A stretch of DNA of 64,000 bases from an uncultured Thermoplasmata archaeon (lineage in GTDB: Archaea > Thermoplasmatota > Thermoplasmata > Lutacidiplasmatales > UBA184), in contig OY970259.1 in NCBI GenBank assembly GCA_963715645.1, positions 1,563,457 through 1,627,456 of the forward strand, read 5' to 3'. Under the pieces are notes generated by a model. It worked only from the letters and a program-made list of their open reading frames with translations, made no database searches and was not told where the DNA came from. The position numbers and the translations under genes were made by a program. Shown one piece after another: positions 21,872 through 39,455 of the stretch (its first letter is position 1; every line of letters begins with the position of its first letter).

Positions 21872-22000
21872 CGGCGAGCGAGCCCAGCGCCCAATCCTGT
21901 GTGCAACAACCTTGCGACCAGTCTGCAAACTCAGTTTTGCGGGCGCGGTGCCCTTCGCACCAGCTGCCACCGGAAGCGGGCTCACCCCCGCGCGCCCTAC

Positions 22001-22279
22001 TCAGTGCTGGGGTGACGAGGGCGAAGAAGCTTGTTGCGCCGCCGCCATCCCCCGCTTGGGGAGGTATCGGTAGACTAGGTAGGCGAGAATGGCAACGTAG
22101 AGAATGACGCCTCCCACGATCGCGAGGATGACGTTTTCCCCGACGCGGGAGGTACCGACGTCCTGGATGTATCCGAGCAGCCCGGACAGGACTATCGTAA
22201 AGACGACCCCCAAGCCGATCTGAAGTGCACTGGGGCGACGCCGATAGAACGCGACCGAGATGAGCCCTGGTAGAATCAT
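22001..22279 (-). CDS. Small membrane protein
   Basis: 92 aa with 2-3 hydrophobic helices. Confidence 0.55.
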   Translation of the reverse strand: MILPGLISVAFYRRRPSALQIGLGVVFTIVLSGLLGYIQDVGTSRVGENVILAIVGGVILYVAILAYLVYRYLPKRGMAAAQQASSPSSPQH

Positions 22280-22445
22280 CCGTCACCGGAGCCGTTACGT
22301 AGTACTATACGAGGTTGGGCCAAACGCGGAACTTTACCGACGTCCAGGGGTCTTCGACCGGTCGATGCGATGATCGGTGGGCAACAACTCTTGCACGCGC
22401 CCGTCAGCCATGGGCGCAAGAGTCGGCACACCCAGTCCTGCCCAA

Positions 22446-23360: not shown

Positions 23361-23426
23361 TCGACGGCTTGACCCTCCCCGGCGGCAGCCATTGACCCCG
23401 CGAGATCCGTTGGTTTCGATATGCTT

Positions 23427-23765
23427 CTATCCCAACCAGTTCCAGAAATCGTCCCGCCAGAAGTCCACCGACTCGTGGACATGCCGAATCCGCGTCAACT
23501 TCAGCCCTTCCCGCTCGGCGACCTTGAACCGTCTCCGCAATTCCTCAACGGTCTCGTCCGAGAGAGAGTCGAGCAGCCGCTTCAGGTCCCGCTCGATTCC
23601 GATATCGAGGGCACGATCGGGGTGACGGATCACGAGGCGGAAGTGGTGACCCCCCGAACCTTCGACACGCACTACTTGCCAGACAAGCGCCTCCCCGCGC
23701 TCTTGCTCGAGTCGGAAGGCGGCGAGATTACCAATCGCCTCCGCGGTAAAGTTCTCGTCCGTCAA
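23427..23765 (-). CDS. Hypothetical protein
   Basis: 112 aa ORF with globular-protein composition, ending FWRDDFWNWLG. Confidence 0.65.
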   Translation of the reverse strand: MTDENFTAEAIGNLAAFRLEQERGEALVWQVVRVEGSGGHHFRLVIRHPDRALDIGIERDLKRLLDSLSDETVEELRRRFKVAEREGLKLTRIRHVHESVDFWRDDFWNWLG

Positions 23766-23967
23766 CCCGGGCCTCAGATACAGCCCAATCTCGAGTCCGC
23801 GGTGCGTGCGAACCCGAGACCAATTGGGTGGAAACCTCCTTCGGTCCCAGCCATGGGGTCTCGGGGAAGAAGTTCACCATCTCCTTCCGAAGGGGGTGGT
23901 CCGCTGCGCCCGCAAATCCCATACTCTGTATCGTGTCTCACGCCGTATCTCGGGAGGGGAACAAACA

Positions 23968-25909
23968 ACGACGACGAATCCTCCCGGTTCTCCGCCCTCA
24001 AACAGGGCGAGCGCTCTTCCTACCCCTCCTCGGTCCGGCGGTTTCTGGAGCCGGTGGCTCCCGATAGGTCGGCCTTCCGGCACTGCCGCTTGGACGAGCG
24101 TCTATCGCGACCTCGCTCGGTGGGTGGTGATCGCGGTTCCTATTGGAATAGTCGCCGGGCTCGGCGCTGCGCTGTTCTACTACCTCATCAACCTGCTCAC
24201 TGATACGCTGCTGGTTCAGCTGGCCGGATTGACGCTCCCCTCGGAGGGTACGTCCACCCTTTCTCAGCTCACTTGGTCTAGCTCCCTTTCCCCGGATCCT
24301 CATCGTCCCCGCGCTTTTGGTCATCGGCGGGCTCGCAGTGGGGGTCATCGTTTGGGGCGCCGCCCCCGAGGTGGCGGGTCACGGAACCGACGCGACCATC
24401 CGCGCCTTCCACAAGACCGCCGGCAAGGTTCGGGTACGGGTGCCAATCCTGAAGACGATCGCCAGTGCGATCACTCTTGGAACAGGAGGAAGCGGAGGAC
24501 GGGAGGGACCGGTCTCTCAGATCGGGGGCGGGTTCGGGTCGATTTGGTCGGACCTCTTCCGTCTCGGGGCCCGGGACCGACGGATCGCGCTCGCGACCGG
24601 GATGGGCGCGGGTATTGGTGCGATTTTCCGAGCCCCATTGGGTGGAGCGGTCTACTCGGCCGAAATCCTCTACACGGGCGACTTCGAGCCCGAAGTATTC
24701 GTCCCCGCAATCATCGCGTCGGTGGTGGCGTACTCCGTCTACTCCACCATTTTCGGCTTCCACACCCTCTTCGCGACGCCGGCCGCGCTCTCGAGCTACG
24801 CGTTCGACCCGGCCCGGTTACCGCTCTACGCCCTCCTGGGAATCGTGTGCGGTGCTGTCGGAATTTTCTTCGTTTGGATGTACCATCGAACAGACGCGTG
24901 GTTCGCATCGCATCACTGGTCTCCGCTCGTCCGGCCGGCGATTGGGGCGGCGGTCGCCGGAGTGATCTTCCTTGGAGCGTATTTCCTACTTCCAGAACAA
25001 GGACACTTCGCCTCGCTCTCCTCGCTTTCGATCGGGTACGGCTTCGTCCAGGCGGTGATGCTCGGTCAGCTCTCGTCGGGGAGTTTCACGGCGATGGTGT
25101 TCGCGATTCTGCTGGCCGCCGTGTTCCTCCGTATGGTGATGACGTCGTTCGTTGTCGGCAGCGGAGGGAGCGCGGGCCTGTTCGGGACGAGCGTCGTGGT
25201 CGGGGCGTTTCTCGGCACGGTGGTCGGTGGGATTTCTCACAATCTTTTGCCAGGCCTCGTTCCCGTCTCCGTGGTCCCGGTCTTCTCGATCGTCGGGATG
25301 ATGTCGTTCTTCGGCGGGATATCGAAGGCACCGCTCGGGGTGCTGATCATGGTGGTCGAGATGGCCGGCACCTACACGATCCTCCCGGCGGCCATGCTCT
25401 CGATCTTCGTCGCCTACGTTGTGACGGGCCGCACCCACATCTACAGCGAACAGCTGCCGAGCCGCATCCAGAGCCCCGCGCACCAGGAGGAGTACCGAGT
25501 GTACTTCCTTTCTACGACCCCGATCGGCGACATCGCCGCGCACGAGTCCGAGATTGTTCCCCCCTCGATGCGCTTGCGCGAGGCAATCGACATCGCAGTG
25601 GCGAACGGACGCGCGGTACTCTCGGTAGAAGAAGCGGGGTCCTGGATGGGCGCCGTGCGTCTGAGTGACATGCTCGCGGTTCCCCCGGAGCGGATGACTC
25701 AAGTTCGATTGGCAGACCTCATGCGTCCGGTTGAGCTCCTCCTCCCGGCCGACCTCTCCGCCGACGAATCACTTCGCCGGATGGAACAGCAGGGAACGAA
25801 CTTGGCGGCGGTCGTGTCGGTCGAGGGAGCTAGCCGAGTGATCGGCCTCGTGACACGCCGAGGAATCCGGGCCCCCGATCCCAATTCGACGCCCTCTTCG
25901 TCCTCCTAG
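23968..25909 (+). CDS. ClC chloride channel/Cl-:H+ antiporter with C-terminal CBS pair, frameshift near 24290 (start uncertain)
   Basis: PEVAGHG, GSGGREGP (gating glutamate), FRAPLGG, GGSAGLFG and CBS domains. Confidence 0.92.
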
Positions 25910-25960
25910 CGTCTCCCGCGTGGCCGCTCGAAGATCGAGGATCCCCGGGTCCGCGGGACT

Positions 25961-28472
25961 TCACTGAGAGAGATGCCGGTGGCGAGGGTGAAAGAACCAG
26001 CGCCACGGCAGACGGGCAGTTAGCGCGACTCGGGGTTCCCTGTGGACTCTGTTGGCATCGCTGCGATCCAACCACCGGTAGGTCCACTGCTTAGCTTGGT
26101 CCACTAGGAGGATCTCGACCGCCGCATACCCCCAGATGCCGACCACCCACAATGGAGGAACGCGTGGGATAAGCCAGCCCATCAGGGCGAGGAGGGAGGC
26201 GAAGACCTGGGTCCCGATGACGCTCAAGAGCAGTATGTTGGCCGGTCGCGATTTCCAGAACGGTCCCTCGGTGCGGGTCAGGAAGATGACGAAATGTCCA
26301 GCGACCGAGAGTTTGAGATAGAATAGTGTCTGCAGAGGAGCGCCTGAGATGTGAAGGGGACCGACCGCGATCGCCAACAACAGGAACGTAGACGCGACCC
26401 CGGTGATTCCGAGCACGGAGGAGACCCGAAGGATCCGGCCCATCCTCCAAGAAACCGGCGTCGGGGAGATCGGAGTGCGGTCGTACGCGATGGCGAGGAT
26501 CGCGGCGTCGTTGAGCAGGGCAATGAGGACGATTTCGAGCGCTGTAACAGGAAAGAACCCAAGGATGACGATCGTGAGGGTGATGAACAGGAGCAGTCGG
26601 ATCGTCTCCTCGATCCGGTAGATGGCGTACGACGCTCATCCGGGCAAAGGTCTGCCGCGCTTGCCGGATCGCCGTGAGGATCACTCCGAGCCCCGGCGCG
26701 GTCAGCACCACTGCGGCCGCGGACCGAGCCGCATCCGACGCTCCCGAGACTGCGATTCCCGCGTCCGCCTTCTTCAGCGCCGGGGCGTCGTTCACGCCAT
26801 CCCCCGTCATCCCGACGATATGTCCGTGCCGCTGCAGCTGATCGACGATCTCGTACTTGTGCTCCGGGAAAACCTGAGCGAAGACACTCGTCTCTTCGAA
26901 GACTTGGGCCCGCCGTGCCTCCCCCGCGCTGCCGTTCCACTCGTCGGGCGTCGTGACGGCGCCTTCCATCCCTAGTTGGTGGCCGGTCTCTCGCGCGATC
27001 GCCGCCTGGTCGCCTGTTACCATCTTGACCTGCACTCCGAGCGCCCGGATCTCTGCGAGGACTTCCGCGGAGTCCGGCCGTAGCGGGTCGAAGAGGGGGA
27101 TCACACCGAGGAATTCCCACGGCCCGTTGCCGCGGGCCCGCGCGACGCCGAGGGCTCGGTAACCGTGGCGGGCGATCTCCGAGACAGCTGTGTCGAGGGC
27201 GGCCGGTACATTCGCCGCTCCACTGGCGACTGATAGGATGGCTTGCGGAGCCCCCTTGGTCACTCGGAGAGTCGAACCGTCCGGCGCCACCAACGAGGCC
27301 TCGGTGCGCTTGAGGACCGGATCGAACGGCAAGAAACGGGTCACCCGGTGCTTCCCCGCGAGCGCGAGAGCCCCGGGCGATGAGAGGATCGCATCGTCAA
27401 TTGGGTCGTGATCGTCGACTCGGGAGGCCAGGACGGCCGCTTCCAGGACCTCGTCGGCCGTGACGCCCTCGAAGGCGACGGGGCTCCCCATTCGTAGAGC
27501 GTTCTGTGTGAGCGTGCCCGTCTTGTCGGAACAGAGCACGTCGATACCCGCGAGCTCCTCCATTGCTTCGAGTCGAGTAACAATCGCCTTCTCGTCGGCA
27601 AGGGTCCGTGCCCCGACCGCCATGGTGACGGAGAGCACCGTCGGCATGGCCACAGGAATGGCGGCGACGGCGAGTACGAGGGCGAACTGGACAGAAGTGA
27701 GCAGGTTCACGCCACGGGCTACCGAAACGGCCTCGATGACCACCGCGAGGCCGAGGGCGAGCACGATGAGGGTGTCTCCTATACGGAGAATGGCGCGTTG
27801 GAGGTGACTCACGGGCTGCGCCGAGGCGACGAGCTGAGCGGTCCGCCCGAGGAAGGTCTTCGGTCCGATCGACGTTACCGTCGCCGTTCCTTCTCCGCGC
27901 CGGACGATCGACCCCGACAGCGCCGTCTCCCCCGATGAGCGGGAAACGGTGAGCGACTCGCCGGTGAGCGCCGACTGATCGAGCTCGAGCGACGCATCGG
28001 CGAGCAGATGGACGTCCGCGGGGACGATGTCCCCCATCCGTAAACGAATGATGTCTCCCGGAACTAACTCACGGGCCGGAAGGCTGTTCCAAACCGTGTC
28101 GCGCAGCACTCGAGCTTGGGGTGCGAGATGCGCCTTCAGAGCGGCTACCGCGTTCCCAGACTGGTACTCTTCCCAGAATCCGACGGTGGCGTTAACGATG
28201 AGCAGGGTGAGAATGATCGCGAAGTCGTCCCAGTTCTGCAGGACGGCGGCGAGCACTGCCGCCACTTCGATCATCCAGGGGATCGGACCCCAGAGATACG
28301 AGGCGAGCCGGCGCCAGAGGCTTACCCTCCGTTCGGGAATCTCGTTGAAACCCTCTCGCCCTTGACGGCCCCTTACTTCGGAGGACGAGAGTCCCTTCGG
28401 GGGCGTGGCAGGGAGTTGCGAAGCGGGGACCAATTTCGGCGCCTCGGGAGCACTTTCGCTCGTCTGCGGCAA
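25961..28472 (-). CDS. Plasma-membrane-type proton-efflux P-type ATPase (P3A), frameshift near 26635
   Basis: WGPIPWMIE, DQSALTGES, AIPVAMP, CSDKTGTLT, KGAP, TGDGVNDAPALK, IALLND and YLKLSVAGH. Confidence 0.95.
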
Positions 28473-28557
28473 GCCTCCATCGTCCCGAACGCCGATTCCA
28501 CCTAACCCTTCCGAACGAGCTCGTCTCCTAAGCAAAGGCATTCGGGTCGAGGAGGAT

Positions 28558-28744
28558 TGGTTCAGAATCGGAAGATTTGTTCCATGCGTGGCATCGGCAC
28601 CGCCGTTCTCTTCGAATCCGATAAAATGGTGGTTGTTGCGGATTAACAGTTACACAAGCATAGAATCCGAACATCCGTTCCAGGCGTGGCCCCAGCATGA
28701 ACTTCTTTTCGAATCCCCTTCTCGGCTCCACCTTTGCAAGGGGG
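28558..28744 (+). repeat. Dispersed intergenic repeat, copy 1 (two tandem sub-units about 98 bp apart)
   Basis: 28564-28693 aligns with 35512-35642 (shared GTTACACAAGCATAGAATCYGAACATCCGTTC..GGCGTGGCCCC); ends CGGCTCCACCTTTGCAAGGG as at 30870 and 31579. Confidence 0.85.
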
Positions 28745-28868
28745 TGGGTTTTCAAACCGGACGCCGCATCGCGTCCCCTACCCTGCGGACCCGCGCGCAC
28801 CTCGCGGTCGGTCATCGGACGCGCGCGTCCTTTATGAAGCCCGCGCGGAGGCTATTCCTGTACGGGCA

Positions 28869-29576
28869 TCAAGACGCCGCGGCCTCGGTCTTTGCTGGAG
28901 TCGTTCTCGACAGGCTGTAAACCTTCCAGCCGATCAGGAGAGGGAAGATGACAAACGTCAGAAGCGCGGGGAGAGCGAACAAGGCGGAAGTGACCGCAAA
29001 GAGGGAGACCCCGACAAGGCCCACCACTCCAAATACCGCGGTCAATCCGCCAAGGATCTTTCCCACCGCCGGGGCCCCGAACATGGCCACCGCGAGGAGT
29101 ATGAAACCGATTGACAGGAAGATGTACGCGTCGGTATCGAACTGATTGAACATCCCTTGGGTTGCTTGCCACACCTGGACGGCCGCCGCCTGCTGAGCGG
29201 CGGTCGCCCCCGCTGCATGATACTGGTCGGAGATCGGAGCCATGGCGACATTCGGCTCACTTTCAGCCCCCAACACGGCTAGGCCGAGAAAGCTCACGAC
29301 GGTCCCGAACATCGCCGGGGCGAGGCTCGATTTTCGGAGGGCGAAAAAGAGGGCCAGGAAGAGAGGCATCAACAAGACCGTGCCCACGAGGAAGAGCGTT
29401 TGCCCCACGATGATTTGCGTGTGGAGGCCGGGGAAGTTAATGACCGGTGTCGCTCCCGAAGCGGTAGTCGACGTTCCGATGAATGCCACTTGATAGATGA
29501 TACTGACTACGAAGATGACCGCAGCCACCAAACCCGCGATACCTCCCCATTGCAGAACGCTCCTCTCCTGGTCCAT
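28869..29576 (-). CDS. Multi-pass membrane protein (DUF4386-like)
   Basis: WGGIAGL start and about 6 TM helices; divergent from the oxidoreductase. Confidence 0.7.
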   Translation of the reverse strand: MDQERSVLQWGGIAGLVAAVIFVVSIIYQVAFIGTSTTASGATPVINFPGLHTQIIVGQTLFLVGTVLLMPLFLALFFALRKSSLAPAMFGTVVSFLGLAVLGAESEPNVAMAPISDQYHAAGATAAQQAAAVQVWQATQGMFNQFDTDAYIFLSIGFILLAVAMFGAPAVGKILGGLTAVFGVVGLVGVSLFAVTSALFALPALLTFVIFPLLIGWKVYSLSRTTPAKTEAAAS

Positions 29577-29621
29577 GAACTCCCCGACCCCGGAAAGGGT
29601 TACACCGATAAGGAAGTACCT

Positions 29622-30617
29622 GTGAAGGCGATCGTTTGGACGCGCTACGGACCACCGGAGGGTCTTCAGCTCGTAGAGGTTGCGAGACCTACTCCTAAGG
29701 ACAATGAAGTTCTGGTCAGGGTACACGCGACAACAGTAACCGCAGGGGACTGTGAGCTTCGAAGTCTCAAGTTCTCAATCTGGCTCAGGGTCTTCTTTCG
29801 AATCTACATGGGCCTCACCAAGCCACGACGGAAGATACTAGGGCAGGAGCTCGCGGGGGACGTTGAGGAAATCGGCAAAGACGTAAAGCGATTCAAGAGA
29901 GGCGACCAAGTCTTCGGAACAACCGGCTTTGGTTTTGGTGCTTATGCCGAGTTCGACTGTGTCCCCGTGGAATCTCAGACCGCCGTGTTGGCGACAAAGC
30001 CGGCCAACATGACCTACGAGGAAGCCGCCGCCGTTCCCATGGGCGGCCTCGAAGCATTGCGTTTTCTGAGAAGGGGAAACCTTCAACGCGGACAAAGAAT
30101 CCTGATCAATGGCGCGGGTGGAAGCATCGGCACTGTTGCTGTTCAGCTTGCCAAGTACTTCGGGGCTGAGGTGACCGCCGTCGATTGCACGGAAAAACTG
30201 GAAATGCTGCGGTCAATCGGCGCGGACCGGGTCATTGACTACACTCGCGAAAAGTTCACCGAGAGCCGTGAGACCTACGACGCGATTCTCGATCTGGTAG
30301 GTAAGGGCTCGATTCCACACGGCCTGAGAGTGCTGAAGAGCCATGGAAGCTATCTCGAGGCTAACCCGCGTCTATCTTTGATGCTTCGAGGATGGACAAG
30401 TTCGAAGAGAGATGGCAGGAAGGTCATATTCAGAGCACCGAGCCCAACGACCGGAGACTTGGTTTTTCTCAAAGAGCTCATCGAGGCGGGGAGGATTAGG
30501 TCGGTAATCGATAGACGCTATCCTCTCGAGCAAGTTCCCGAGGCGCACCGCTACGTCGAATCGGGCCATGCTCGAGGAAAAGTAATCATCGTGGTGGAAC
30601 AGAACGGCATCACCTGA
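29622..30617 (+). CDS. NAD(P)-dependent MDR oxidoreductase (quinone-reductase-like)
   Basis: YGPPEGL, GAYAE, INGAGGSIGT, GADRVIDY and GHARGKVII. Confidence 0.9.
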   Translation: MKAIVWTRYGPPEGLQLVEVARPTPKDNEVLVRVHATTVTAGDCELRSLKFSIWLRVFFRIYMGLTKPRRKILGQELAGDVEEIGKDVKRFKRGDQVFGTTGFGFGAYAEFDCVPVESQTAVLATKPANMTYEEAAAVPMGGLEALRFLRRGNLQRGQRILINGAGGSIGTVAVQLAKYFGAEVTAVDCTEKLEMLRSIGADRVIDYTREKFTESRETYDAILDLVGKGSIPHGLRVLKSHGSYLEANPRLSLMLRGWTSSKRDGRKVIFRAPSPTTGDLVFLKELIEAGRIRSVIDRRYPLEQVPEAHRYVESGHARGKVIIVVEQNGIT

Positions 30618-30746
30618 TCGTGCCGAATCTAGGAGGCGGGAGCAATCCTGCCTGCGTCGTTCTTCGCTGTTCTTCATCGACCATTGCGGTGTGTTCCCCA
30701 ACGGGCTGGTTGCTTACTCGCGAAGGACCAGTCCGCCCGCTCTCAC

Positions 30747-30873
30747 GGTTTTCTTACGGGGGATGGGATAAGGGGGGGTCGCTAGACCGGGAGCTCTAGT
30801 GATCTGAGAGGGTCGGTACAGAATCGGACGTTTCGTTCCGAGCCCCTCTTCGGCTCCGCCTTTGCAAAGGGGT
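30747..30873 (+). repeat. Dispersed intergenic repeat, copy 2
   Basis: Contains CCGGGAGCTCTAG, GATCTGAGAGGGTCGGTACAGAATCGG (compare 61993-62017) and GTTCCGAGCCCC..CGGCTCCGCCTTTGCAAAGGG. Confidence 0.75.
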
Positions 30874-30876
30874 CCA

Positions 30877-31365
30877 TTAGTGTCCCTTCGCCGGCCGTCC
30901 CGCTCGATAGTCGGCCTCGCAGGCCGCCACAAATCGGGCCCAAGTGGCCGCTATTTGTGCGCGAAGTTCTTCCTTCGTCGGATGGTCGGGCGTGAGCCAG
31001 CGCTCGGTGGAGAGCAGATGAAGGCGGGTCCGCGCTCGGCCCATCGCGGTAACACGATAATCTAGCGACTGCCGATCGGTCTCGTCGATCTGATCGAGAT
31101 GCCAGGAGCGCGGCGGATTGAGACGCACCAGGTCGACGGCGATCGCGGGGTCGCGACCGAGCCCCCGGGCCACGCGGATGCGGACCACGCGGCGCGGCGA
31201 AACTCGGATCAATCGAAACGTCGGACGAGGACGCCTCTTCGAGAACCGCGAGTCACTGGTCCGGTAGTCCGTGCACCACTCGTACACGTATCGCGAAGGA
31301 GCGCGGATCGATAGTGACAAGCGAACCCGGGTGGTACCGTACAACCGGTGGCCCCGTTCGGCCAT
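30877..31365 (-). CDS. Hypothetical protein (SRPBCC/START-like fold possible)
   Basis: IRAPSRYVYEWCTDY N-terminus and WARFVAACE C-terminal helix. Confidence 0.65.
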   Translation of the reverse strand: MAERGHRLYGTTRVRLSLSIRAPSRYVYEWCTDYRTSDSRFSKRRPRPTFRLIRVSPRRVVRIRVARGLGRDPAIAVDLVRLNPPRSWHLDQIDETDRQSLDYRVTAMGRARTRLHLLSTERWLTPDHPTKEELRAQIAATWARFVAACEADYRAGRPAKGH

Positions 31366-31438
31366 GGGGAGCGGAAATCGGGGGTTCGACTTAAGCGCTC
31401 GTTGCCCAGTTAGGGGCCATCGAGTCGACCGTTCACAC

Positions 31439-31581
31439 CGTCTTCTAACGAGGGGTTTGTGTAATGGAGGGTGTGCCCCACCCGTGAGCTTCCGTCGCCC
31501 CTCGATCACCTTGTTAGGACGCCGGTCTAGAATCCGAAGATTCTTTCCGAGCCCCCGCCGGGCTCCACCTTTGCAAAGGGC
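31439..31581 (+). repeat. Dispersed intergenic repeat, copy 3
   Basis: TTCTAACGAGGGGTTTGTGTAA...CCCCTCGATC...GTCTAGAATCCGAAGATT aligns with 34603-34715; ends GGCTCCACCTTTGCAAAGGG. Confidence 0.85.
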
Positions 31582-31660
31582 GTGCCTTTTGTGCGGCGTG
31601 GGGTGTGGGTTCCCCGGACGCCCTGGCGTGGGCACGAACCCAGACCCCTGCGCGTCGCCG

Positions 31661-33652
31661 CTAAGGTGGCAGCCGGCCCAAATTCGTAGTCACCCGCCTC
31701 GGAATGCCGGTCGGGAGCTTCATGGCCCGGAGCAAGGCCACGAAGCGTGGCTCATCGCGGATTGGATCTAGGAACTCGGACTGATAGTAGTTCCACAGAA
31801 TCCTGTCCCCTTCCTGGAAGTCCTGTTCGAGGTGGGCCAGTGCCTTCTCCTTCTCTCCTTGCATGGCATACAAGAGGGCAGGCCCTCCCGCGGGGATGTA
31901 CCCGGGAAGGCGACCTTCCTCCAGATCGGCTGCCAGTGCTTTGCCCTCTTCCGGCCTTCCCAGGAAGGCGAAAAGCCCTGCCCGGAACAATCGAGCCATT
32001 AAGCTATGGGTTGTCGACATTGAGTCCAACGCCCTGAGGGCTTCGTCGACCCGGCCCGCGAGCGCATAAGCGATTGCGAGCGCGACCAGAACGGCGCCGG
32101 GTCCGGCAAAACTTTCCTTCAGTGTCTCGCCCATCCGGATCGCGGACTCTAGATCGCCGGTGTTCAGGTACGACCATGCCAGCTGCAGCCGGGGCAGAAG
32201 CCAAACAGGATCCAGCTCGATGGCTCTCCGGTTCTGTTCTCTTGCCTCGTCATTTCGCTGCAGGACCCCAAGCAAGTAGCCATACCAGAAGTGAGCCGTT
32301 GGACTGCTCGGGTTGAGCTCGATGCCCTTCCGGAACTCCGCTTCGGACCGAGGCCAGTCCAGATCACCTTGCATCGCGATATTGCCGAGCGCAATGTGAG
32401 CATCGGACGAGTTTGGATTCAGTTCGAGCGCCTTAGCCACCAGCACCCTGGCGCGGGGCAAAACTGCCCTTCCGGAGAGAGTAACGCCCAACGCGGCAAT
32501 GAGATGGTTGGCGAGGTAGGAGTAGGCCGCGGAGAATTGAGGGTCCTGTCGAATAGCCTCCTCAAAGTATTCCGAAGTCTCTCGATCGGCCTCTTCGCTC
32601 GCGGACCCTCCATAACGTTGGAACGCTTGGATTCCTCGCAGATAGGATTCGTACGCGACAAGGCTCGACGTTGGCTTCTCGTGAAGGGCCTCCCGCTCCG
32701 AACTCAGCAGCGCGACTCGGAGCGCACCAGCCGTCCGTTCCGCAACATCCGCTTGGATCGCGAACACGTTCTCGAGCTTGCGGTCGTAGGTCATCGCCCA
32801 TCGATGTTCCTCGGTCTGAGCGTCGATCAGCTGCACCGTGATCCGCAGCTGATTGTCGGCCTTTCGAACGCTCCCCTCCAGCACCGTGCTGACATTCAGC
32901 TCCAACCCGATCTGGGCGATCGTCTTCGAGGTGCCCTTGTACTGGCTCACGGACGTCCGTGCGATAACCCGAAGTCCGCGGATCTGGGACAGAACTGAGA
33001 TGAGTTCTTCCGTTAGACCGTCTGCGAAGTACTCGTCCTTCGGGTCCGGGCTGATGTTTGCCAGCGGAAGGACCGCGAGACGCGGAAGCAACTCCCCCTC
33101 TGCCCTCCTGTTGCCTCCGGTCCAGGGCAAGACGACACGGTACAGGTCGATGGGGAACCGCACGTTCTTGAGCGTCTTCGGTTCCAGTTTCTCGAGACCG
33201 TTCGGAATTTTGTTCCGGACCTGTCCGAACACCGGGTCGGTGATGCAGATCCCGCCCGGGTCGGCCAGCGCTTCGACCCGAGAAGCGATGTTCACCGAGT
33301 CCCCGACGATGTCGTTTCCTTCGTGCACCACGTCTCCCAAGTGGATCCCAATCCGAAGCCGTATCTTGGACGCGTCCGGGGCGGAGAGATTGTGCTCGTG
33401 GAGCATACGCTGGATCTCGACCGCGCACTGAACACCCTGGAGGGCACTGTCAAACTCCACCAGGAACCCGTCGCCCATTGATTTGACCTCGCGACCCCGG
33501 TGAGTGGCGAAAAGGGGACGAACGAGTCTCTGTTGCTGCCCACGCACCCGGAGTGCCGTGGCCTCATCCTCCTGGGCGGAGGCGGTGGAACCCACCATGT
33601 CGGTAAACATGATGGCGGCGAGTCTTCGGGTAGAGGCCACGACCCGAAACAT
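31661..33652 (-). CDS. Class III adenylate/guanylate cyclase with TolB-like domain and TPR repeats
   Basis: RRLAAIMFTDMVGST, KSMGDG, RIGIHLGD, GDSVNIASR; LAVLPLANIS..YFADGLTEELI; TPRs. Confidence 0.93.
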   Translation of the reverse strand: MFRVVASTRRLAAIMFTDMVGSTASAQEDEATALRVRGQQQRLVRPLFATHRGREVKSMGDGFLVEFDSALQGVQCAVEIQRMLHEHNLSAPDASKIRLRIGIHLGDVVHEGNDIVGDSVNIASRVEALADPGGICITDPVFGQVRNKIPNGLEKLEPKTLKNVRFPIDLYRVVLPWTGGNRRAEGELLPRLAVLPLANISPDPKDEYFADGLTEELISVLSQIRGLRVIARTSVSQYKGTSKTIAQIGLELNVSTVLEGSVRKADNQLRITVQLIDAQTEEHRWAMTYDRKLENVFAIQADVAERTAGALRVALLSSEREALHEKPTSSLVAYESYLRGIQAFQRYGGSASEEADRETSEYFEEAIRQDPQFSAAYSYLANHLIAALGVTLSGRAVLPRARVLVAKALELNPNSSDAHIALGNIAMQGDLDWPRSEAEFRKGIELNPSSPTAHFWYGYLLGVLQRNDEAREQNRRAIELDPVWLLPRLQLAWSYLNTGDLESAIRMGETLKESFAGPGAVLVALAIAYALAGRVDEALRALDSMSTTHSLMARLFRAGLFAFLGRPEEGKALAADLEEGRLPGYIPAGGPALLYAMQGEKEKALAHLEQDFQEGDRILWNYYQSEFLDPIRDEPRFVALLRAMKLPTGIPRRVTTNLGRLPP

Positions 33653-33819
33653 GCCCCGGTTAGATTAAGGCGCACCCTGCGCGGACAGTTCCTGTCAGGG
33701 GTTTGAAACCAGCATCTTGGATAGGTCGGGCTCCATTCCCCAGACGGATGACCTCGGTCCAACGACGGGGTCGGGTAACCCTTGGATATCCCGTCGGAGG
33801 CAGCTCGGCGTCCTGCGGT

Positions 33820-33925
33820 ACCATGAACTGAACGGATGGGAGATTCGCACCCCCTAGAGCTCCCCGGTGGTTCGTTGATGTATGCCGCACTCCTTCGTGG
33901 ATCACCCTTTTGGAAAGCGGTGGAT
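33820..33925 (-). repeat. Degenerate inverted copy of the intergenic repeat
   Basis: Reverse complement contains CCACCGCTTTCCAAAAGGG, CCGGGGAGCTCTAG and GAATCTCCCATCCGTTC, resembling sub-motifs of the other copies. Confidence 0.5.
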
Positions 33926-33970
33926 TGTTCGAGGTAGGGTAGTGTCCGGGGTCGTCGCCCTTCCGCGGGT

Positions 33971-34414
33971 TTAGGCCTTGTAACCCGTCAGCCGAATCTC
34001 TCCTTTGGCTAAGTTCGCCGTACCGGTCGCCCACACTTGAATCGAGTTCACCCAAGCATGAGCGGGCGAGTTGGACTTCAACGTCACGCTTTCCCGAAGC
34101 TGGAGGATCCCGTTCGCATCGAGAGTACCCAATCCGTCCGCAAACAACGACACCTTTCCCCCGTCCTTCAACTCGAGCCGGGCGTGGCCGTGGAGCTCGA
34201 TTCGTCCGTCGGCGCGAATGTTGAGGTAGTCCACGGAGTGGAAAGATCCCTTCAGCTTAGGTCCGTCGACCGTGCCTTCGACCCTACCATCGAAGCGGGC
34301 GCCCGCGGGAGGGGGAGCGCTCTTTCCCTCCAGGATGGCTTGGATGCTCGCCCCGTCCTCATCTGTCCCCGTCATGCGCCCCATGATGTCAAAGATCAGC
34401 TCGGCCGATTCCAT
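33971..34414 (-). CDS. DUF3237-like beta-barrel protein
   Basis: GPKLKG, DYLNIRADG and HAWVNSIQVWATG. Confidence 0.7.
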   Translation of the reverse strand: MESAELIFDIMGRMTGTDEDGASIQAILEGKSAPPPAGARFDGRVEGTVDGPKLKGSFHSVDYLNIRADGRIELHGHARLELKDGGKVSLFADGLGTLDANGILQLRESVTLKSNSPAHAWVNSIQVWATGTANLAKGEIRLTGYKA

Positions 34415-34602
34415 GTGCGTTTCCCAACGGGTTCACGATTAAAGTCATGTCGACGCCCCCACGCCCGCCTGGCCCCGTTCCCCACGGCGACGTCCGGCAC
34501 CCCGCCGGTTCGGCAGGGTCGGTGTAGCGGCAAGCGGGCCGTTGCCGGCGTTTAGAAAGGGCTCGTTTCCTAGCGGGAGCTCATTGGGTCGGCGGCTCCC
34601 AC

Positions 34603-34720
34603 CCTTTTCTAACGAGCGGGTTGTGTAACGGGGGGGTCCTCGCCCTGACGCTCATCTTCCCCTCGATCGCCTCGTTCCGGGACTTGTCTAGAATCGAAAG
34701 ATTTGTTCAGAGCCTGGCAT
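34603..34720 (+). repeat. Dispersed intergenic repeat, copy 4
   Basis: Colinear with 31439-31555; its 3' part AGAATCGAAAGATTTGTTC..GCCTGGCAT also matches 28564-28594. Confidence 0.85.
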
Positions 34721-34856
34721 GGGGTCAGAACCTCGACTCTCGTCGTTGGAGCATTGGGGCCCCGAACCAGGTCAGGAGAGGGGCAGGCCAATCGATACCT
34801 AGGATCACCTAAGCTTCATATATCGATGCCAACCTCACTTAGCAGGGGGACCAACG

Positions 34857-35072
34857 ATGGAGACGGTGACCGTATCGTCGAAGTATCAGGTTGTGATCCC
34901 CGAGAAGATTCGGCGTCACCACGGTATTCGCCCAGGGGACAAACTCGCGGTGATCGTCAAGCACGGGGTGGTGCATCTGGTTCCCGTCCGCCCGTTCGAC
35001 GCGTCGAAAGGCATGTTCAAGGAATCCAAAGTCGACAATCGTGACCTCCGCGACCGCACGGACCGCTTCTAG
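34857..35072 (+). CDS. vapB: AbrB/MazE-type antitoxin
   Basis: VTVSSKYQVVIPEKIR...IRPGDKL. Confidence 0.9.
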   Translation: METVTVSSKYQVVIPEKIRRHHGIRPGDKLAVIVKHGVVHLVPVRPFDASKGMFKESKVDNRDLRDRTDRF

Positions 35073-35460
35073 CGAAGGAGGCGGAAGTACGATCAGCATC
35101 GATAGCCATGGGTGGATCGAGCGGCTGCTCGAAGGCCCCAGGGCCCCTTCGTACAATCGCGCCTTCTCGAGTGTCCCTCCCTCGGATATCGTGACCTCGG
35201 TGGTTACCGTATACGAGGTCTACAAGAAACTCAGACCGATGAAGGGCGAGTCGGCGGCCCTTGAGGCGATCGTGCACCTTCGCGCGACCACGTTGGTCCC
35301 CTTCGACGACCAGCTGGCCTTAGAGGCCGCAGATTACTCACTTTCTCTTCACCTCCACTTCTCGGACGCCATCATCTACGCGACGGCCCGAAGGTTCGGG
35401 GCCGAGCTCCACACTAGTGACCCTGAACTTCGCGGCAAGCCCGGAGTCGTCTTTCACTGA
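35041..35460 (+). CDS. vapC: PIN-domain toxin
   Basis: IDSHGWIE, TVYEV, FSDAIIYATA and TSD; overlaps the antitoxin gene. Confidence 0.9.
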   Translation: MTSATARTASSEGGGSTISIDSHGWIERLLEGPRAPSYNRAFSSVPPSDIVTSVVTVYEVYKKLRPMKGESAALEAIVHLRATTLVPFDDQLALEAADYSLSLHLHFSDAIIYATARRFGAELHTSDPELRGKPGVVFH

Positions 35461-35506
35461 TAGGCCCCGCTGGAGACCGTGGCGGAACCTTTGGTACCCG
35501 GTGCAT

Positions 35507-35642
35507 TGGCGCGTGATTGGAAGAATCGTTCCATGCCGGGCCTGAGTACCGCCAACTTCTTCGAATCCCAGAAAACGGAGGTTGTTACGGGTTAACCGTT
35601 ACACAAGCATAGAATCTGAACATCCGTTCGAGGCGTGGCCCC
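35507..35642 (+). repeat. Dispersed intergenic repeat, copy 5
   Basis: About 130 bp colinear with 28564-28693, including TTCGAATCC and GGTTGTTRCGGRTTAACMGTTACACAAGCATAGAATC. Confidence 0.88.
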
Positions 35643-35859
35643 GAATTCGAGCCCCGAGGGGGTCGAATCTCGTAGGAGAGTTAGACTAAATGGAAGAGCC
35701 AAGGGAGGGAATTGAGGAAAAGTTCGAATCCCGCCGAAAGCCCGGGTGAGGGCGGTTTCCGTCCCACCCAGATCTATGCGGTTGGGCGTAAGCCCGTATC
35801 CAGTCACATCGCCCGCGTTGCAAAAGGAACCCTTTGCACAATGTTCAGAAAGCGGTGCC

Positions 35860-36087
35860 TTAACGACCGCCGGGATACGCACTGCCTGGCTTCATGTCGT
35901 CCAGGTTCGGCGCCGTTAGCATCCCATCAGGCGTGTGGCAGATCGGGCATCTTCGGCCTCTCTTAACCGCCCAGTAGATGATTCCCGGAATGATGAACAG
36001 GATTAGCAGGACGATCAGGATCCCGAGGCTGTAGCCTGGCTCGGTGTTCACGTTCCGCTTGCAAGCGGGGCACCACTTCATCGTCAT
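35860..36087 (-). CDS. Small membrane-anchored zinc-ribbon protein (LITAF-like CxxC-TM-CxxC)
   Basis: CPAC, hydrophobic stretch ILIVLLILFIIPGIIYW, then CPIC. Confidence 0.7.
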   Translation of the reverse strand: MTMKWCPACKRNVNTEPGYSLGILIVLLILFIIPGIIYWAVKRGRRCPICHTPDGMLTAPNLDDMKPGSAYPGGR

Positions 36088-36188
36088 CTCATTCCACCAA
36101 ATCTGGCGAGGGGACCCCGTCGGTGTACTTAAACGTCCGGAATCGGGCTCTTTGTGGAGGGACCCAGTCCTTCTTCGTAGGCTTTGAC

Positions 36189-36216
36189 CCATTTCTAACC
36201 AGAGGGTTCTCTATGG
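36189..36216. repeat. 28-bp imperfect palindromic site of the repeat family, downstream of tRNA-Cys
   Basis: CCATTTCTAAC-CAGAGG-GTTCTCTATGG; similar to 34603-34630 and 31439-31466. Confidence 0.6.
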
Positions 36217-36383
36217 GCTCCTTTGACAATCTCCAGTTTTGAGAAGGGTCAACCCTGCGGCGGCTGAACTCCGACTTTCACAAGGGACCCTTTTCCGATT
36301 GCCTTCCCGCCTCCTTGAATCAGGCAGAATCCAATCGCGCATGTGGGGCGGGACAATATCTCAACCACACCCGCAGAAATTCC

Positions 36384-36456
36384 AGCCAAGGGAGGGAATC
36401 GAACCCCCAGGAAGCGGATCTGCAGTCCGCCGCATTAACCATTCTGCCACCTTGGC
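36384..36456 (-). tRNA. tRNA-Cys(GCA)
   Basis: Reverse complement GCCAAGGTGGCAGAATGG...GCGGA-CTGCAGA-TCCGC...GGTTCGATTCCCTCCCTTGGCT; anticodon GCA, discriminator U. Confidence 0.95.
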
Positions 36457-36480
36457 GCGGCCGGAGCGAAGAGACCTCGG

Positions 36481-36487
36481 CTTAAAG
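36481..36487 (-). promoter_or_regulatory. Archaeal TATA box for tRNA-Cys
   Basis: CTTTAAG 25-31 nt upstream of the tRNA. Confidence 0.6.
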
Positions 36488-36513
36488 CGCTCGGGGCAGA
36501 TGGAGGCGACGAC

Positions 36514-37194
36514 CTACACGGACCGGAAGCCGCGGGCGAGGAACTTCCCGGCGTTCGTGACCCCGAGGCGGAACCGGCCCCTCCACGGGAGGGAGCGTCC
36601 TCCGGGAAGCGTTTGTCGCCGCCGGAGCGCCTCGAGGAGGTCGTCCACCCCGGTGGAGGTATCCGGGAAGTTGGTGAACGCCCGTCCCAGGTCTGCCAGC
36701 GCATGGACATCGCTCCCTCCGGTCGCCGCAAGGGTCCGACGAGCCGCCAGGAGCTCCGCCTTCAGGTTCGATACCTCGGAGTTGTGCCCATTCCGCGTCT
36801 CGATCCCATCCGCGCGGGCCGACTCCGCGACCCGGCGCCCTACCCCGTGGCGCAGTCGGAAGGGGTGCGCGATCACCGACTCTCCGCCGTGGGCCCGGAC
36901 CCATTCGATCGACTCGACGATAGGTCGGTGGGCGGGAGGGAGTTCGGAGACGCCATACGCGAGGAGGTGGCCCTCCAAGGTCGAGATCTCGACCCCGGGC
37001 AGGAAGACGTACCCTGGGTAAGCGCGGGCCAGCTCGGCAAGCTCGGCGTGACCCGCGATGGAGTTGTGGTCGGTGAGCGCGAACCCCCGAAGCCCCGTGT
37101 AGCCGAGCCGTTGTCCGATCGCCGCGACGGGGAGGGAACAGTCCGGCGAGTGGCGGGAGTGCACGTGCAAGTCGAGCCGGAGGTCGGTCGTCAC
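36514..37194 (-). CDS. PHP-domain metallophosphoesterase
   Basis: DLHVHS, LTDHN, GVEIST..GH, AHPF and GGSDVH. Confidence 0.9.
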   Translation of the reverse strand: MTTDLRLDLHVHSRHSPDCSLPVAAIGQRLGYTGLRGFALTDHNSIAGHAELAELARAYPGYVFLPGVEISTLEGHLLAYGVSELPPAHRPIVESIEWVRAHGGESVIAHPFRLRHGVGRRVAESARADGIETRNGHNSEVSNLKAELLAARRTLAATGGSDVHALADLGRAFTNFPDTSTGVDDLLEALRRRQTLPGGRSLPWRGRFRLGVTNAGKFLARGFRSV

Positions 37195-39455
37195 CGAACG
37201 GGCGCTCCCGGTGGCACCGTCTCTCCCGGCTGAACCAGGCGGCCGGGCCCGAACGCGAGGAGGGTTCCTCGGGTGCTCTCGGGAGGCCGTAGGACGACGA
37301 CCGCCGGCAGGCCCGCCGGCCACTCCCCCTCGACCTCGACCGCGACCGGACCGAGGCTCACGACGGTCCGACCGCCGGGCACCGTCGCCCCCGTGGTGCC
37401 CACCTGGATCCGATACGAAGCGAACTCGTCGTACGTGATGGTCCGGTCCTCGGGACCGCGCCCGGGCAGGTACGTCCCCGCGGCGATCCCCTCCGGCGGG
37501 GCGAGAAGGACCGGCCGCCCGCCCGCCTCAGCGGCAAGAACCATTCCCTGCGAGGGCACTCCGCGGATCGTGCGCGGTGCGAGGTTGGCAAGCAGCACGA
37601 CCGGTCGACCGACAAGCGCCTCCAGAGAGTAGGCTCCGCGGATTCCTGCGACGAGCGACCGGGGCTTCTCTTCGCCGACGTCGACCTCGAGCACGAGGAG
37701 CCGGTCGGCGGAGGGGTGGTCGGAGGCCCGGCGGATGACGCCCGTCCGAAGGCCGAGGGGCGGAGCCTCGGAGGCGGGCACCGGGACGCGCCCGCTCTCG
37801 AGGCGGGCCGTCGGGGGCTCCGAGGAACTCTTGGGAAAGAGTGGCCGGACCTCCCCGAGCGCCTGACCGGCCGGGGGCGGCTCCAGGATCCGCTCCCAAT
37901 CGCCGGCGGAGGGAGGGTCCGCATATCCGAGCATCCGGAAAACCGCGGCGGTCGAGTTCGGGAGCACCGGCGCGAGCCAGGTCGCAAGCGCCTTCAACCG
38001 CCAGACTGACTCAAAGAGGATCCGAGAGCGCTCGGGCTCTTCGGCCTGCCAGGGTCGGGCCTCATGGAACCGACGGTTCGCCTCCCGGACCGCGTCGAGG
38101 GTCCGGTCGAGGGCCGCCTTGAGGTGGACCCGCTCGTATTCCTCGGTGATCTGGGCGTGCGTCACCAGGATTCGCTTCCCCGTCCCCTCGGCGGGGTCCG
38201 GCTGCCATCCCTCGGGGGGAGAGGGAATCTGCCCTCCGTAGCGCTCCCGGACGAGCACGAGCGTACGCTGAACCAGGTTGCCGAACTGGTTGGCCAGGAT
38301 CTCATCGCGGACCTTCTCGAGCTCGTCCCAATCGAGCTCGGTATCGTGGTTCTCCGGAGCGAGCAGCGCGGCGTAGAACCGAATGACATCGGGGGGATAC
38401 TCCGCGAGCAACGACGGATGAAAGGCGTCCCGCGCGGTCGAGCGGGATTTCGAGAGCTTCCCGCCCTGGATCAGGAGCCACTCGTTCGCGGGCACGTCGT
38501 CCGGTAGATGCAGCCCACCCACTCCCAGGAGCACCCCGGGCCAGAGGATTGTGTGGTGGAACTTGTTGTCCTTCCCCATGAAATAGTAGTGACGGGCGGG
38601 CTCCCGCTCGTCCCAGTAGCGGCGCCAGGCCTCCGGGCGACCGCTCCGAACCGCCCACTCCTTGGCGGCCGAGAGGTAGCCGATCAGGGCCTCGAACCAG
38701 ACGTACAGGCGCTTCGACTCGTAGCCGTCCAGCGGAAGCGCGACGCCCCAGTCGAGGTCCCGCGTGATCGGCGTCGGACGCAGTCCCTCGGCCAGAAAGT
38801 TCTCGGCGACCTTGCGGGTGCCGGGGCGCCAGTCTAGGCGGCCCGCGATGTACTCGGCGACCCGCGGCTGAAGCCGGTCGAGCTCGAGGTAGAATTGCTC
38901 GGAGGGCCGGAACTCGGCGGGGGTGCCGCAGAGGACGCACTTCGGTTCGCCCAGCTCCTTCGCGTCCAGCGGGCGGCCGCACCGGTCGCACTCGTCGCCC
39001 CGCGCCGTCGGCGACCCGCAATGCGGACAGGTGCCCACGAGATACCGGTCCGGCAGGAAGCGGGCATGCTTCGGGCAGTAGGCGCCCTCGGTGGTACGCC
39101 GGCGAACGAATCCGTTCTCCAAGAGCGCGAGGAAGATCTCCTGCGAGGTTCGGGCGTGGAGGAGGGTTCGCGTGCTCGTGAACAGGTCGAAGGAGATCCC
39201 GAGTTTCACGAACGCCTCGCGGTTTAGCCGGTGGTACTGCTCGGTCAACTCCTCGGGGGAGATCCCCTCCTTCTCCGCGGAGACGAGCGCGGGGGTCCCG
39301 TGCATGTCCGAGCCCGAGACCATCAGGACTTCGTCCCCCCGGAGTCGGTGGAAACGCGCGAAGAGGTCGGCCGCCACGTAAGTGCTCGCGAGCTGACCGA
39401 GGTGGAACGGCCCGTTGGCGTACGGCCAAGCGACGCCGATGAAGATCCGGCCCAC
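37191..39455 (-). CDS. metG: Methionine--tRNA ligase
   Basis: AWPYANGPFHLG, GSDMHGTP, zinc knuckles, ITRDLDWG, FMGKDN, KLSKS and C-terminal tRNA-binding OB fold. Confidence 0.97.
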   Translation of the reverse strand: MGRIFIGVAWPYANGPFHLGQLASTYVAADLFARFHRLRGDEVLMVSGSDMHGTPALVSAEKEGISPEELTEQYHRLNREAFVKLGISFDLFTSTRTLLHARTSQEIFLALLENGFVRRRTTEGAYCPKHARFLPDRYLVGTCPHCGSPTARGDECDRCGRPLDAKELGEPKCVLCGTPAEFRPSEQFYLELDRLQPRVAEYIAGRLDWRPGTRKVAENFLAEGLRPTPITRDLDWGVALPLDGYESKRLYVWFEALIGYLSAAKEWAVRSGRPEAWRRYWDEREPARHYYFMGKDNKFHHTILWPGVLLGVGGLHLPDDVPANEWLLIQGGKLSKSRSTARDAFHPSLLAEYPPDVIRFYAALLAPENHDTELDWDELEKVRDEILANQFGNLVQRTLVLVRERYGGQIPSPPEGWQPDPAEGTGKRILVTHAQITEEYERVHLKAALDRTLDAVREANRRFHEARPWQAEEPERSRILFESVWRLKALATWLAPVLPNSTAAVFRMLGYADPPSAGDWERILEPPPAGQALGEVRPLFPKSSSEPPTARLESGRVPVPASEAPPLGLRTGVIRRASDHPSADRLLVLEVDVGEEKPRSLVAGIRGAYSLEALVGRPVVLLANLAPRTIRGVPSQGMVLAAEAGGRPVLLAPPEGIAAGTYLPGRGPEDRTITYDEFASYRIQVGTTGATVPGGRTVVSLGPVAVEVEGEWPAGLPAVVVLRPPESTRGTLLAFGPGRLVQPGETVPPGAPVR

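Follow-up and report, generated by a model that had tools for sequence, protein, structure and literature searches.

What are the non-coding repeats that separate the small gene modules beside a tRNA-Cys gene in an uncultured Thermoplasmata archaeon, and what placed them there? The question is raised by a stretch of 64,000 nucleotides (GenBank assembly GCA_963715645.1, contig OY970259.1, positions 1,563,457 to 1,627,456 of the forward strand; G000:C1:1563457-1627456 in our numbering), which as a whole is referred to here as the window. Its genome, G000, is a single contig of 2.18 Mb with a G+C content of 67.6% and contains an archaeal small-subunit rRNA gene. An earlier note on this DNA described positions 28558-36216 as an array of gene cassettes anchored on tRNA-Cys, punctuated by a repeat family and analogous to integron arrays or pdif modules. 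The observation was largely right and the cassette idea is supported by genome comparison, while the tRNA-Cys anchor and the attC/pdif analogy had to be given up. The explanation which we favour, and which we hold to be probable though by no means certain, is that each repeat is an attachment-site junction left behind by a small gene cassette which targeted the 3' end of tRNA-Leu(CAA), and that the window contains a displaced and decaying array of such cassettes.

Copies of the repeats were sought throughout the genome with blastn, gene labels were taken from Pfam, and RNA families from Rfam (positions 26000-38000, E<=1). The repeat family is real. Its best pair, 28551-28693 and 35500-35642, is 80% identical over 143 nt (E 1.8e-29 against the 2.18-Mb genome); the segments 31393-31553 and 34557-34714 share approximately 72% identity, and 30734-30871 and 31426-31580 share 66%. 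The common terminus recorded in the earlier note, CGGCTCCRCCTTTGCAARGG, is indeed found at about 28742, 30870 and 31579. Beyond the best pair blastn revealed only a handful of other partial copies in G000.

The repeat units are mosaics of four motifs, A, B, C and D, which were resolved by aligning the copies found in relatives and then placed in the window by profile scans. Motif A is approximately 79 nt in length, with a strongly conserved 3' half. Motif B (ca. 40 nt) consists of a 25-nt left part, B-left, which is absent from the tRNA, and a 13-nt core which is shared with it. Motifs C and D are shorter and flank the others; C sits between two B copies in the long form of the unit, and D, of which the common terminus is a part, contains a perfect 12-nt palindrome that is followed by a run of T in two of the copies. 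The scans located three copies of A, seven of B (at 28561, 28660, 30817, 31525, 34686, 35516 and 35609) and three of D (at 28715, 30844 and 31553). Every A and B copy of the window, and every D copy, lies on the plus strand, independent of the strand of the flanking genes, and the motifs form AT-richer islands in this 67% G+C genome. The units are arranged as follows:

28560-28747, plus strand: junction R28, a B1-C-B2 unit (28560-28700) followed by D (28715-28747), with degenerate cores GCGTGGCATCGGCA and GCGTGGCCCCAGCA.
30700-30876, plus strand: junction R30, with A (30700-30777), B-left (30817-30854) and D (30844-30873); the core is deleted.
31393-31583, plus strand: junction R31, with A (31393-31469), B-left (31525-31563) and D (31553-31583); the core is deleted.
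33711-33853, plus strand: R33, a degenerate spacer element with a weak A-like stretch at 33758-33779 (E 0.012).
34556-34723, plus strand: junction R34, with A (34556-34634) and B (34686-34723), and the degenerate core GCCTGGCATGGGG.
35510-35649, plus strand: junction R35, a B1-C-B2 unit with degenerate cores.
36145-36208, plus strand: a weak A-like copy (E 2.7e-5 in a small search).

All of the cores in the window are thus degenerate, or, in R30 and R31, deleted in such a way that B-left abuts D directly. An inverted repeat had been reported at 33820-33925; no inverted copy was found there, only the weak plus-strand match within R33. This spacer is 63% similar to one other locus (genome positions 68779-68921), and it is absent between the same two genes in the related genome G007. 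The repeat site formerly placed at 36189 persists as the A-like copy at 36145-36208, as a weak match only.

The core could be matched to a tRNA gene. The sequence CCTGGCCCCGGCA is the last 13 nt of tRNA-Leu(CAA), comprising the 3' strands of the T-stem and the acceptor stem plus the discriminator base, and these 13-14 nt also form the end of almost all B copies across a dozen genomes. G000 (2.18 Mb) contains four occurrences of the 12-mer CTGGCCCCGGCA, three of which, all on the plus strand, belong to a second cluster of repeat copies at 512.5-518.6 kb. That cluster starts at the tRNA-Leu(CAA) gene itself (512535-512617), the downstream flank of which resembles D, with the first repeat 1.3 kb beyond; a B-type site with an intact core lies at 513876-513916. 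Its modules encode a prenyltransferase-like protein, a GNAT protein, an M29 peptidase, and SnoaL-type and DinB-type proteins; upstream of the tRNA are the genes for Rpp21 and GluRS. Of the nine A copies listed for G000, eight are found no more than 6 kb downstream of a tRNA gene (five of the six loci), whereas only about 9% of the genome is that close. The copies are therefore clustered behind tRNA genes and not spread uniformly, a uniform spread having been named in the earlier note as a ground for refutation.

The same arrangement extends across the genus. A sequence-only model of A, run over 150 genomes, found copies in 47 of them, with 1-14 per genome. The tRNA-Leu(CAA) gene was located in 131 of the 150; this tally, like that of the DNA matches to the window in relatives, includes three unpublished genomes (G019, G088 and G156), on which no specific claim depends. 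When the two sets of positions were cross-matched by hand, 14 of the 47 genomes had, among the matches listed, an A copy no more than 12 kb downstream of tRNA-Leu(CAA), on the same contig and in the orientation of the tRNA; a further 33 A matches fell outside the list used. We then examined the region downstream of tRNA-Leu(CAA) at 25 loci (approximately 4.5-17.6 kb, mostly about 15 kb), 15 of them chosen with a repeat already known there or nearby and ten taken blind (G001, G002, G007, G013, G022, G045, G048, G076, G158 and G161). Motif A and/or B was present at 17 of the 25, and at two of the ten blind ones (G001 and G161), and 47 of 48 matches were in the orientation of the tRNA (A, 18/19; B, 29/29). 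In these arrays, which start at the target tRNA, the units separate modules of one or two genes and are bounded by direct repeats of the tRNA 3' end. The closest relative, G001, possesses six B copies spaced 1-2 kb apart, all with perfect cores. G046 and G147 contain additional cores with other left arms, so that several arm families share one core. Between tRNA-Leu(CAA) and the conserved neighbour gene, G048 has an empty site, with an insert of approximately 0 kb; the insert is 1.8-8.5 kb long in another 11 genomes and reaches 18.9 kb in G000.

The modules that the repeats delimit in the window are these:

25961-28541, minus strand: P-type cation ATPase gene (Pfam E1-E2_ATPase, 4.2e-45).
28869-30617: a two-gene module with a DUF4386-like membrane protein (28869-29726, minus strand) and a Zn-dependent dehydrogenase (approximately 29630-30617, plus strand), both labelled from Pfam.
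30880-31365, minus strand: open reading frame (ORF) of 162 amino acids without a Pfam family.
31661-33652, minus strand: adenylate/guanylate cyclase with TPR repeats (Pfam).
33971-34414, minus strand: DUF3237 protein (Pfam, 8.2e-7).
34857-35460, plus strand: vapBC-type pair, with a MazE/AbrB-fold antitoxin (34857-35072) and a PIN toxin (35041-35460) (Pfam).

The earlier labels of vapBC, DUF3237, cyclase-TPR and Zn-dehydrogenase are borne out by Pfam; DUF4386 falls under the cut-off (24.4 vs 27.6 bits), and "SRPBCC-like", the former description of the 162-amino acid ORF, is unsupported. That the repeats mark module boundaries, as the earlier note held, is evident from homologous modules elsewhere, the similarity to which ends at or near a repeat. 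The ATPase gene recurs, at 79-80% identity, as the second cassette of the tRNA-Leu array of G010; the homology spans the 5' region and B-left and ends inside the core. A 688-bp segment, 30866-31553, which contains the 162-amino acid ORF together with A and B-left, has a counterpart of 89% identity among the cassettes of G041's tRNA-Leu array, where both flanks differ and the right breakpoint is the junction of B-left and core. The segment 28795-30790 (DUF4386, dehydrogenase and A) is 88% identical to a locus at G003:C1:604.8 kb, the match ending just past A. Lastly, G007 has an A copy on either side of its cyclase and DUF3237 genes, beside a tRNA-Arg gene.

Public sequencing runs provided a strain variant. 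Five runs, with no RNA run listed, contained a small share of the stretch (0.05-0.14 of its sampled words), and the contigs of four runs were aligned to it; regions of a run without cover were not counted as evidence. In the soil-metagenome run X1 a contig of 677 nt, 92-94% identical to the window, joins position 31543 to 34705 and omits 3161 bp, namely the cyclase and DUF3237 module and exactly one repeat period. With no more than 6 ambiguous nt at the joint, an artefact of k-mer collapse is unlikely; a related strain therefore has the module of the 162-amino acid ORF directly before vapBC, by either insertion or deletion. In a second contig of this run, B-left at 31548 runs into an intact core, AGGCCTGGCCCCGGCG. 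Two other joints from X1 were set aside. One, from 28708 to 30844, is uninformative, with only 22 nt on one side and seven foreign letters. The other, which goes back from 34718 to 28609, had been considered as a circle junction and was rejected: its 16 linking letters match the B1-C link of an A-B-C-B unit in G003, so that it represents the long unit of a relative mapped in two pieces.

The suggestion that any recombinase is encoded elsewhere agrees with the searches, since none was found in or beside the arrays. G000 encodes five tyrosine recombinases (PF00589), none of them near either array; one, at 1696543-1697478, is XerA (NF040815, 248 bits against a cut-off of 220). With tblastn (E<=1e-4) no integrase homologue was detected in the 25 tRNA-Leu loci or in 11 unit-carrying metagenome contigs, and PF00589 scans of ten genomes found no match within 10 kb of a repeat or array. 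All 11 genomes scanned contain XerA, and they have no other tyrosine recombinase in common. Apart from XerA, G001, with its array of six copies, has one other tyrosine recombinase in an assembly that is 93% complete, and the array-bearing G046 has a recombinase fragment in an assembly that is 82% complete.

Repeats of a tRNA 3' end in a single orientation, an element arm on one side only, sharp breaks of homology at the core, and an empty site together constitute the signature of site-specific integration, and we infer that site-specific recombination took place with the recombinase acting in trans. In the scheme which we propose, a full junction would consist of A (approximately 79 nt), a spacer, B-left (25 nt), the 13-nt core and either a weakly conserved right arm or D. 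The cassettes would carry one or two genes on about 0.5-3 kb, without a recombinase, and would stack between tRNA-Leu(CAA) and the conserved neighbour gene. A circular cassette with A, B-left, core and right arm may recombine with the core of the tRNA through a tyrosine recombinase supplied in trans, either a chromosomal enzyme or one brought in by transient elements. Each new cassette would then shift the older ones outward, and the old junctions would decay. The degenerate or deleted cores indicate that the array of the window itself is probably no longer competent for recombination.

A more ambitious version of this proposal is that soil Thermoplasmata possess an integron-like platform for gene capture, in which free cassettes of one or two genes, each with its own arm of approximately 170-250 bp, enter at the 3' end of tRNA-Leu(CAA) and are inserted, excised and reshuffled singly by a host tyrosine recombinase. 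This we regard as possible but tentative. The housekeeping XerA is the one recombinase which every array-bearing genome examined possesses. The A-type arms found at other tRNAs hint at one pool of cassettes serving several docking sites.

An explanation which dispenses with single-cassette movement, and which we consider rather unlikely without dismissing it, sees in the arrays the wreckage of larger integrase-bearing elements or proviruses, integrated in tandem at tRNA-Leu and trimmed by deletion between attachment sites. The genus does have integrases that target tRNA genes (at tRNA-Cys in G007, and at tRNA-Ile in G010 with a homologue of the 162-amino acid ORF nearby), an integrase ORF of G000 overlaps tRNA-Thr(CGT), and the cores of G000 decay with distance or age. 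There is a precedent in tandem accretion in bacteria, and in the tycheposons of Prochlorococcus, elements which, according to the part of the report available (bioRxiv 10.1101/2020.12.28.424599), can be separated only by a partial tRNA copy and are accompanied by degenerate remnants and scattered partial tRNAs. Against this, neither a homologue nor a fragment of an integrase was recovered from the 25 loci and 11 contigs, nor any integrase near the arrays of the ten genomes scanned; none of the virus contigs carries B plus the core. The units, moreover, are uniformly small, and in each of them the long conserved arm (A to B-left) is intact as far as the core, an outcome not to be expected of random deletion; a one-gene cassette recurs together with its arm, at 89% identity, in the array of another genome (G041). 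That the units instead have transposon-type ends (those of miniature inverted-repeat elements, insertion sequences or casposon-like elements), the core being a target-site duplication and B-left a terminal inverted repeat, is extremely improbable. The array does resemble a stack of insertions, and the core of 13-14 nt recalls the 14-bp duplications of tandem Methanosarcina casposons in tRNA-Leu, as far as the available part of that study goes (PMC4779613). When the 42 nt after each of 49 cores were compared with inverted B-left, however, the mean best identity was 10.5 of 25, against 10.4 for 5000 control segments; this lack of resemblance excludes ends of the transposon type. No inverted-repeat pairs surround the modules, and G000 has no match to Cas1 (PF01867), other transposase families not having been searched.

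attC sites are imperfect palindromes (R''-L''...L'-R') which fold as single-stranded hairpins, and pdif sites are 28-bp dif-like sequences of the 11-6-11 type which alternate in orientation. A classical integron or a cluster of attC sites lacking an integrase (CALIN), with attC and IntI, or a pdif-type array served by Xer at dif-like sites, would account for modules of one or two unrelated genes, a toxin-antitoxin pair among them, and XerA is at hand in all 11 genomes scanned, including G046, which bears an array and has no other intact recombinase. The repeats nevertheless neither fold nor pair in the manner of attC in the folding tests given below; their conserved CTCGTT...AACGAG arms have the reverse order to what we take to be the R''/R' arms of the attC consensus; gene orientation is mixed (per module of the window: -, -/+, -, -/-, +/+), without the co-orientation of integron cassettes; and, the units are unidirectional (all A and B copies of the window, 47/48 matches in the tRNA-Leu loci) where pdif sites alternate. 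None of the five G000 recombinases passes the integron-integrase models, the best score being 154.3 bits against a cut-off of 265, for the XerA protein. Archaeal integrons have been reported mostly as arrays without intI, to judge from the portion of that work available (bioRxiv 10.1101/2022.02.06.479319), which favours this interpretation; on balance we find the integron/pdif interpretation, and with it the analogy drawn in the earlier note, very improbable. We rate as equally improbable the notion that the repeats are expression or RNA elements (promoters, terminators or small RNAs) copied along with the genes and without a role in recombination. The AT-rich character of the motifs, the D palindrome with its T-run in two copies, and the position of R31, 27 nt upstream of a start codon, would fit such a function. 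Against it, tRNA-Cys was the sole Rfam match in the region searched, RNAalifold found no consensus pairs among 29 A copies, and the single-stranded DNA folds of seven units were no better than those of shuffled sequences (z -1.2 to +1.4); the orientation of the copies is independent of that of the genes, the core is the 3' end of the tRNA behind which the units lie, and homology breaks at that core.

Several points weigh against the proposal that cassettes integrate at tRNA-Leu(CAA). No tRNA-Leu gene heads the array of the window, and its presence next to tRNA-Cys does not follow from the scheme. The recombinase acting on the cassettes is a putative component of the scheme, and no circular or excised form occurs among the assembled contigs of the four runs. 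The X1 joint maps within B-left and not in the core, and homologous recombination between repeats could equally have given rise to it. The right-arm motif is weak: a profile built from 15 junctions matches 9 of the 16 tRNA flanks in genomes with arrays and 0 of 7 in genomes without them, and its scores do not exceed 5.6 bits. In several genomes it is the tRNA itself that D follows, which fits only if the right arm of the cassettes resembles D. The distal ends of the tRNA-Leu arrays lack a core followed by the original flank: in none of 13 genomes is there a core within 150 nt of the conserved block. Finally, the A-like copies beside tRNA-Cys, tRNA-Thr(GGT) and tRNA-Ala(TGC), and beside tRNA-Arg(GCG) in G007, are inverted with respect to the tRNA, which the simple model does not predict; these copies suggest that A is a feature of the cassettes independent of any single target. 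One of them is a weak A-type copy at 62007-62079 (minus strand; E 7.9e-5) in the window, 110 nt downstream of tRNA-Thr(GGT) (61826-61898, plus strand).

How, then, is the array of the window related to the tRNA-Cys gene on which it was thought to be anchored? The array consists of the ATPase gene and four further modules and extends from the former (about 25961) to R35 (35649), running opposite to tRNA-Cys; it thus neighbours a tRNA of the other strand, and its degenerate cores correspond to the end of tRNA-Leu(CAA). The membership of the ATPase had been overlooked, as had a short copy of the tRNA-Cys 3' end. The features on this side are:

35697-35712, minus strand: 16-nt exact direct repeat of the tRNA-Cys 3' end (E 0.002), 674 nt downstream of tRNA-Cys.
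35863-36192, minus strand: small zinc-ribbon/transmembrane ORF, LITAF-like below threshold (14.8 vs 23.8 bits).
36384-36456, minus strand: tRNA-Cys(GCA), at the 3' end of which the synteny with relatives begins.

The 16-nt repeat forms the outer boundary of a separate islet of 0.67 kb before tRNA-Cys, so that only the last small module is bracketed by a repeat of this tRNA. A search of the window for additional tRNA-Cys 3'-end copies yielded nothing beyond the 16-mer at 35697, and a 22-nt pattern allowing up to three mismatches matched the tRNA alone. As to the LITAF-like label of the earlier note, it does not reach the Pfam cut-off, and the real start of this ORF is probably internal.

The tRNA-Cys locus was compared among relatives, as had been called for. 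The synteny of G000 with its relatives takes up again precisely at the tRNA-Cys 3' end, and in G001 the 10.5 kb from a chloride-channel gene to tRNA-Cys are replaced by approximately 1.1 kb of other sequence; neither A nor B was present at any of the 13 relatives' tRNA-Cys loci scanned. The array of the window is therefore specific to G000, displaced and probably inactive. A possible remnant of tRNA-Leu to the left of the ATPase (about 25860-25925) was discarded: its local alignment score of 16 equalled the best of 200 shuffles.

Short copies of tRNA ends are found at other loci of G000. At 6 of the 33 tRNA genes the last 14 nt of the tRNA (with at most one mismatch) are repeated directly within the next 25 kb downstream, compared with 0 of 33 for inverted controls. 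The six are Leu-CAA, Gln-TTG (three copies at +15.3 to +17.7 kb), Arg-GCG (+899), Arg-TCT (+487), Arg-CCT (+999) and Cys (+674), and sub-kilobase islets at tRNA ends seem to be common in this genome.

Among known systems, the CIMEs related to the integrative and conjugative element families of Streptococcus are units without an integrase, flanked by att sites beside the target and mobilisable by the integrase of an incoming element; they differ in being deletion derivatives of large bacterial conjugative elements and not a series of single-gene cassettes. Tycheposons of Prochlorococcus, in the part of the description available (bioRxiv 10.1101/2020.12.28.424599), resemble the present arrays in their insertion at tRNA 3' ends, partial-tRNA separators, outward push, decayed remnants and niche cargo. 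They carry, however, a tyrosine or serine recombinase and usually replication genes on several kb or more, whereas our units are archaeal, of 0.5-3 kb, lack a recombinase (25 loci, 11 contigs) and possess a conserved arm of approximately 170-250 nt. With integrons and CALINs, as far as the accessible text goes (bioRxiv 10.1101/2022.02.06.479319), they share the stacking of one- or two-gene, recombinase-less cassettes at one insertion point, a content of GNAT, DinB and toxin-antitoxin genes, and the occurrence of arrays without an adjacent integrase. Unlike integrons they show no attC hairpin, no IntI and no attI beside an integrase gene; the 3' end of a tRNA is the site, and given the mixed orientation there is no common promoter logic. 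The additive flexible genomic islands of Alteromonas (PMC3698932, available in part) likewise have a fixed site, such as a tRNA gene, where the number of gene cassettes varies with the strain, so that the islands differ greatly in size. They are a descriptive bacterial category, with integrons, mobilizable islands or transposases as mechanisms, and no shared att arm is described in that part of the paper. Casposons of Methanosarcina (PMC4779613, likewise available in part) agree in their archaeal host, tRNA-Leu target, tandem arrangement and similar length of duplicated target; they have terminal inverted repeats, Cas1 and PolB, whereas inverted ends and Cas1 were not found here. Tandemly integrated archaeal elements are mentioned in the accessible part of a review on recombinases. 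A literature search, conducted in a limited library and excluding supplements, returned no account, for Thermoplasmata or other archaea, of cassette arrays at tRNA-Leu that lack a recombinase. What is new compared with tRNA-targeted insertion islands is the integron-like series of single-gene cassettes, the lack of integrases, and a defined long attachment arm.

If the cassettes do move singly, they would represent an archaeal counterpart of integrons which arose independently of IntI and attC, and a route by which uncultured soil Thermoplasmata could exchange toxin-antitoxin pairs, GNAT, DinB and SnoaL enzymes, and ion pumps; the site might also serve as a natural docking point for archaeal genetic tools. 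Being defined (a 13-nt core and a 25-nt left arm), it makes the movement of single cassettes directly testable. Even on a conservative reading an unexplained repeat family becomes a mapped record of insertions, and the tRNA-Cys array a displaced fossil and not an active platform.

Some observations on individual genes remain to be recorded. The ATPase frame is split near its 3' end into the overlapping ORFs 26091-28541 and 25961-26443, while its homologue in G010 is a single ORF of 836 amino acids; the split is probably an indel of the assembly. The cyclase domain (32720-33670) belongs to a large paralogous family in the genus, with dozens of DNA matches of 66-79% identity and many copies per genome; one paralogue is the first cassette behind tRNA-Leu(CAA) in G001. 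Elsewhere in the window 6 kb (18422-24361), which encode an MBL-fold hydrolase, a DinB/MST-like protein and a GNAT protein, are missing from G001, the closest relative; they contain no A or B repeats.

As regards integrases and their elements, a provirus-labelled record of 467 kb was considered as a parent element and rejected: although it contains the tRNA-Leu 3' end, it lacks both a PF00589 match and a copy of A. Tyrosine integrases related to that at 2148299-2149309 of G000 were found in G007 (L016 4698-5600), 1.6 kb downstream of tRNA-Cys, and in G010 (L060 8538-9419), adjoining tRNA-Ile, with an 89% homologue of the 162-amino acid ORF lying approximately 0.3 kb beyond tRNA-Ile in the latter. 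Two paralogous tyrosine recombinase genes of G000, 1200345-1201766 and 1220749-1221855, are 20 kb apart on the same strand and may be the ends, or two copies, of an integrated element. A further integrase frame of G000, 1889367-1890659 (minus strand), possesses a C-terminal zinc-ribbon motif and overlaps the 3' part of tRNA-Thr(CGT) (1890624-1890697, minus strand), a layout typical of an integrated element.

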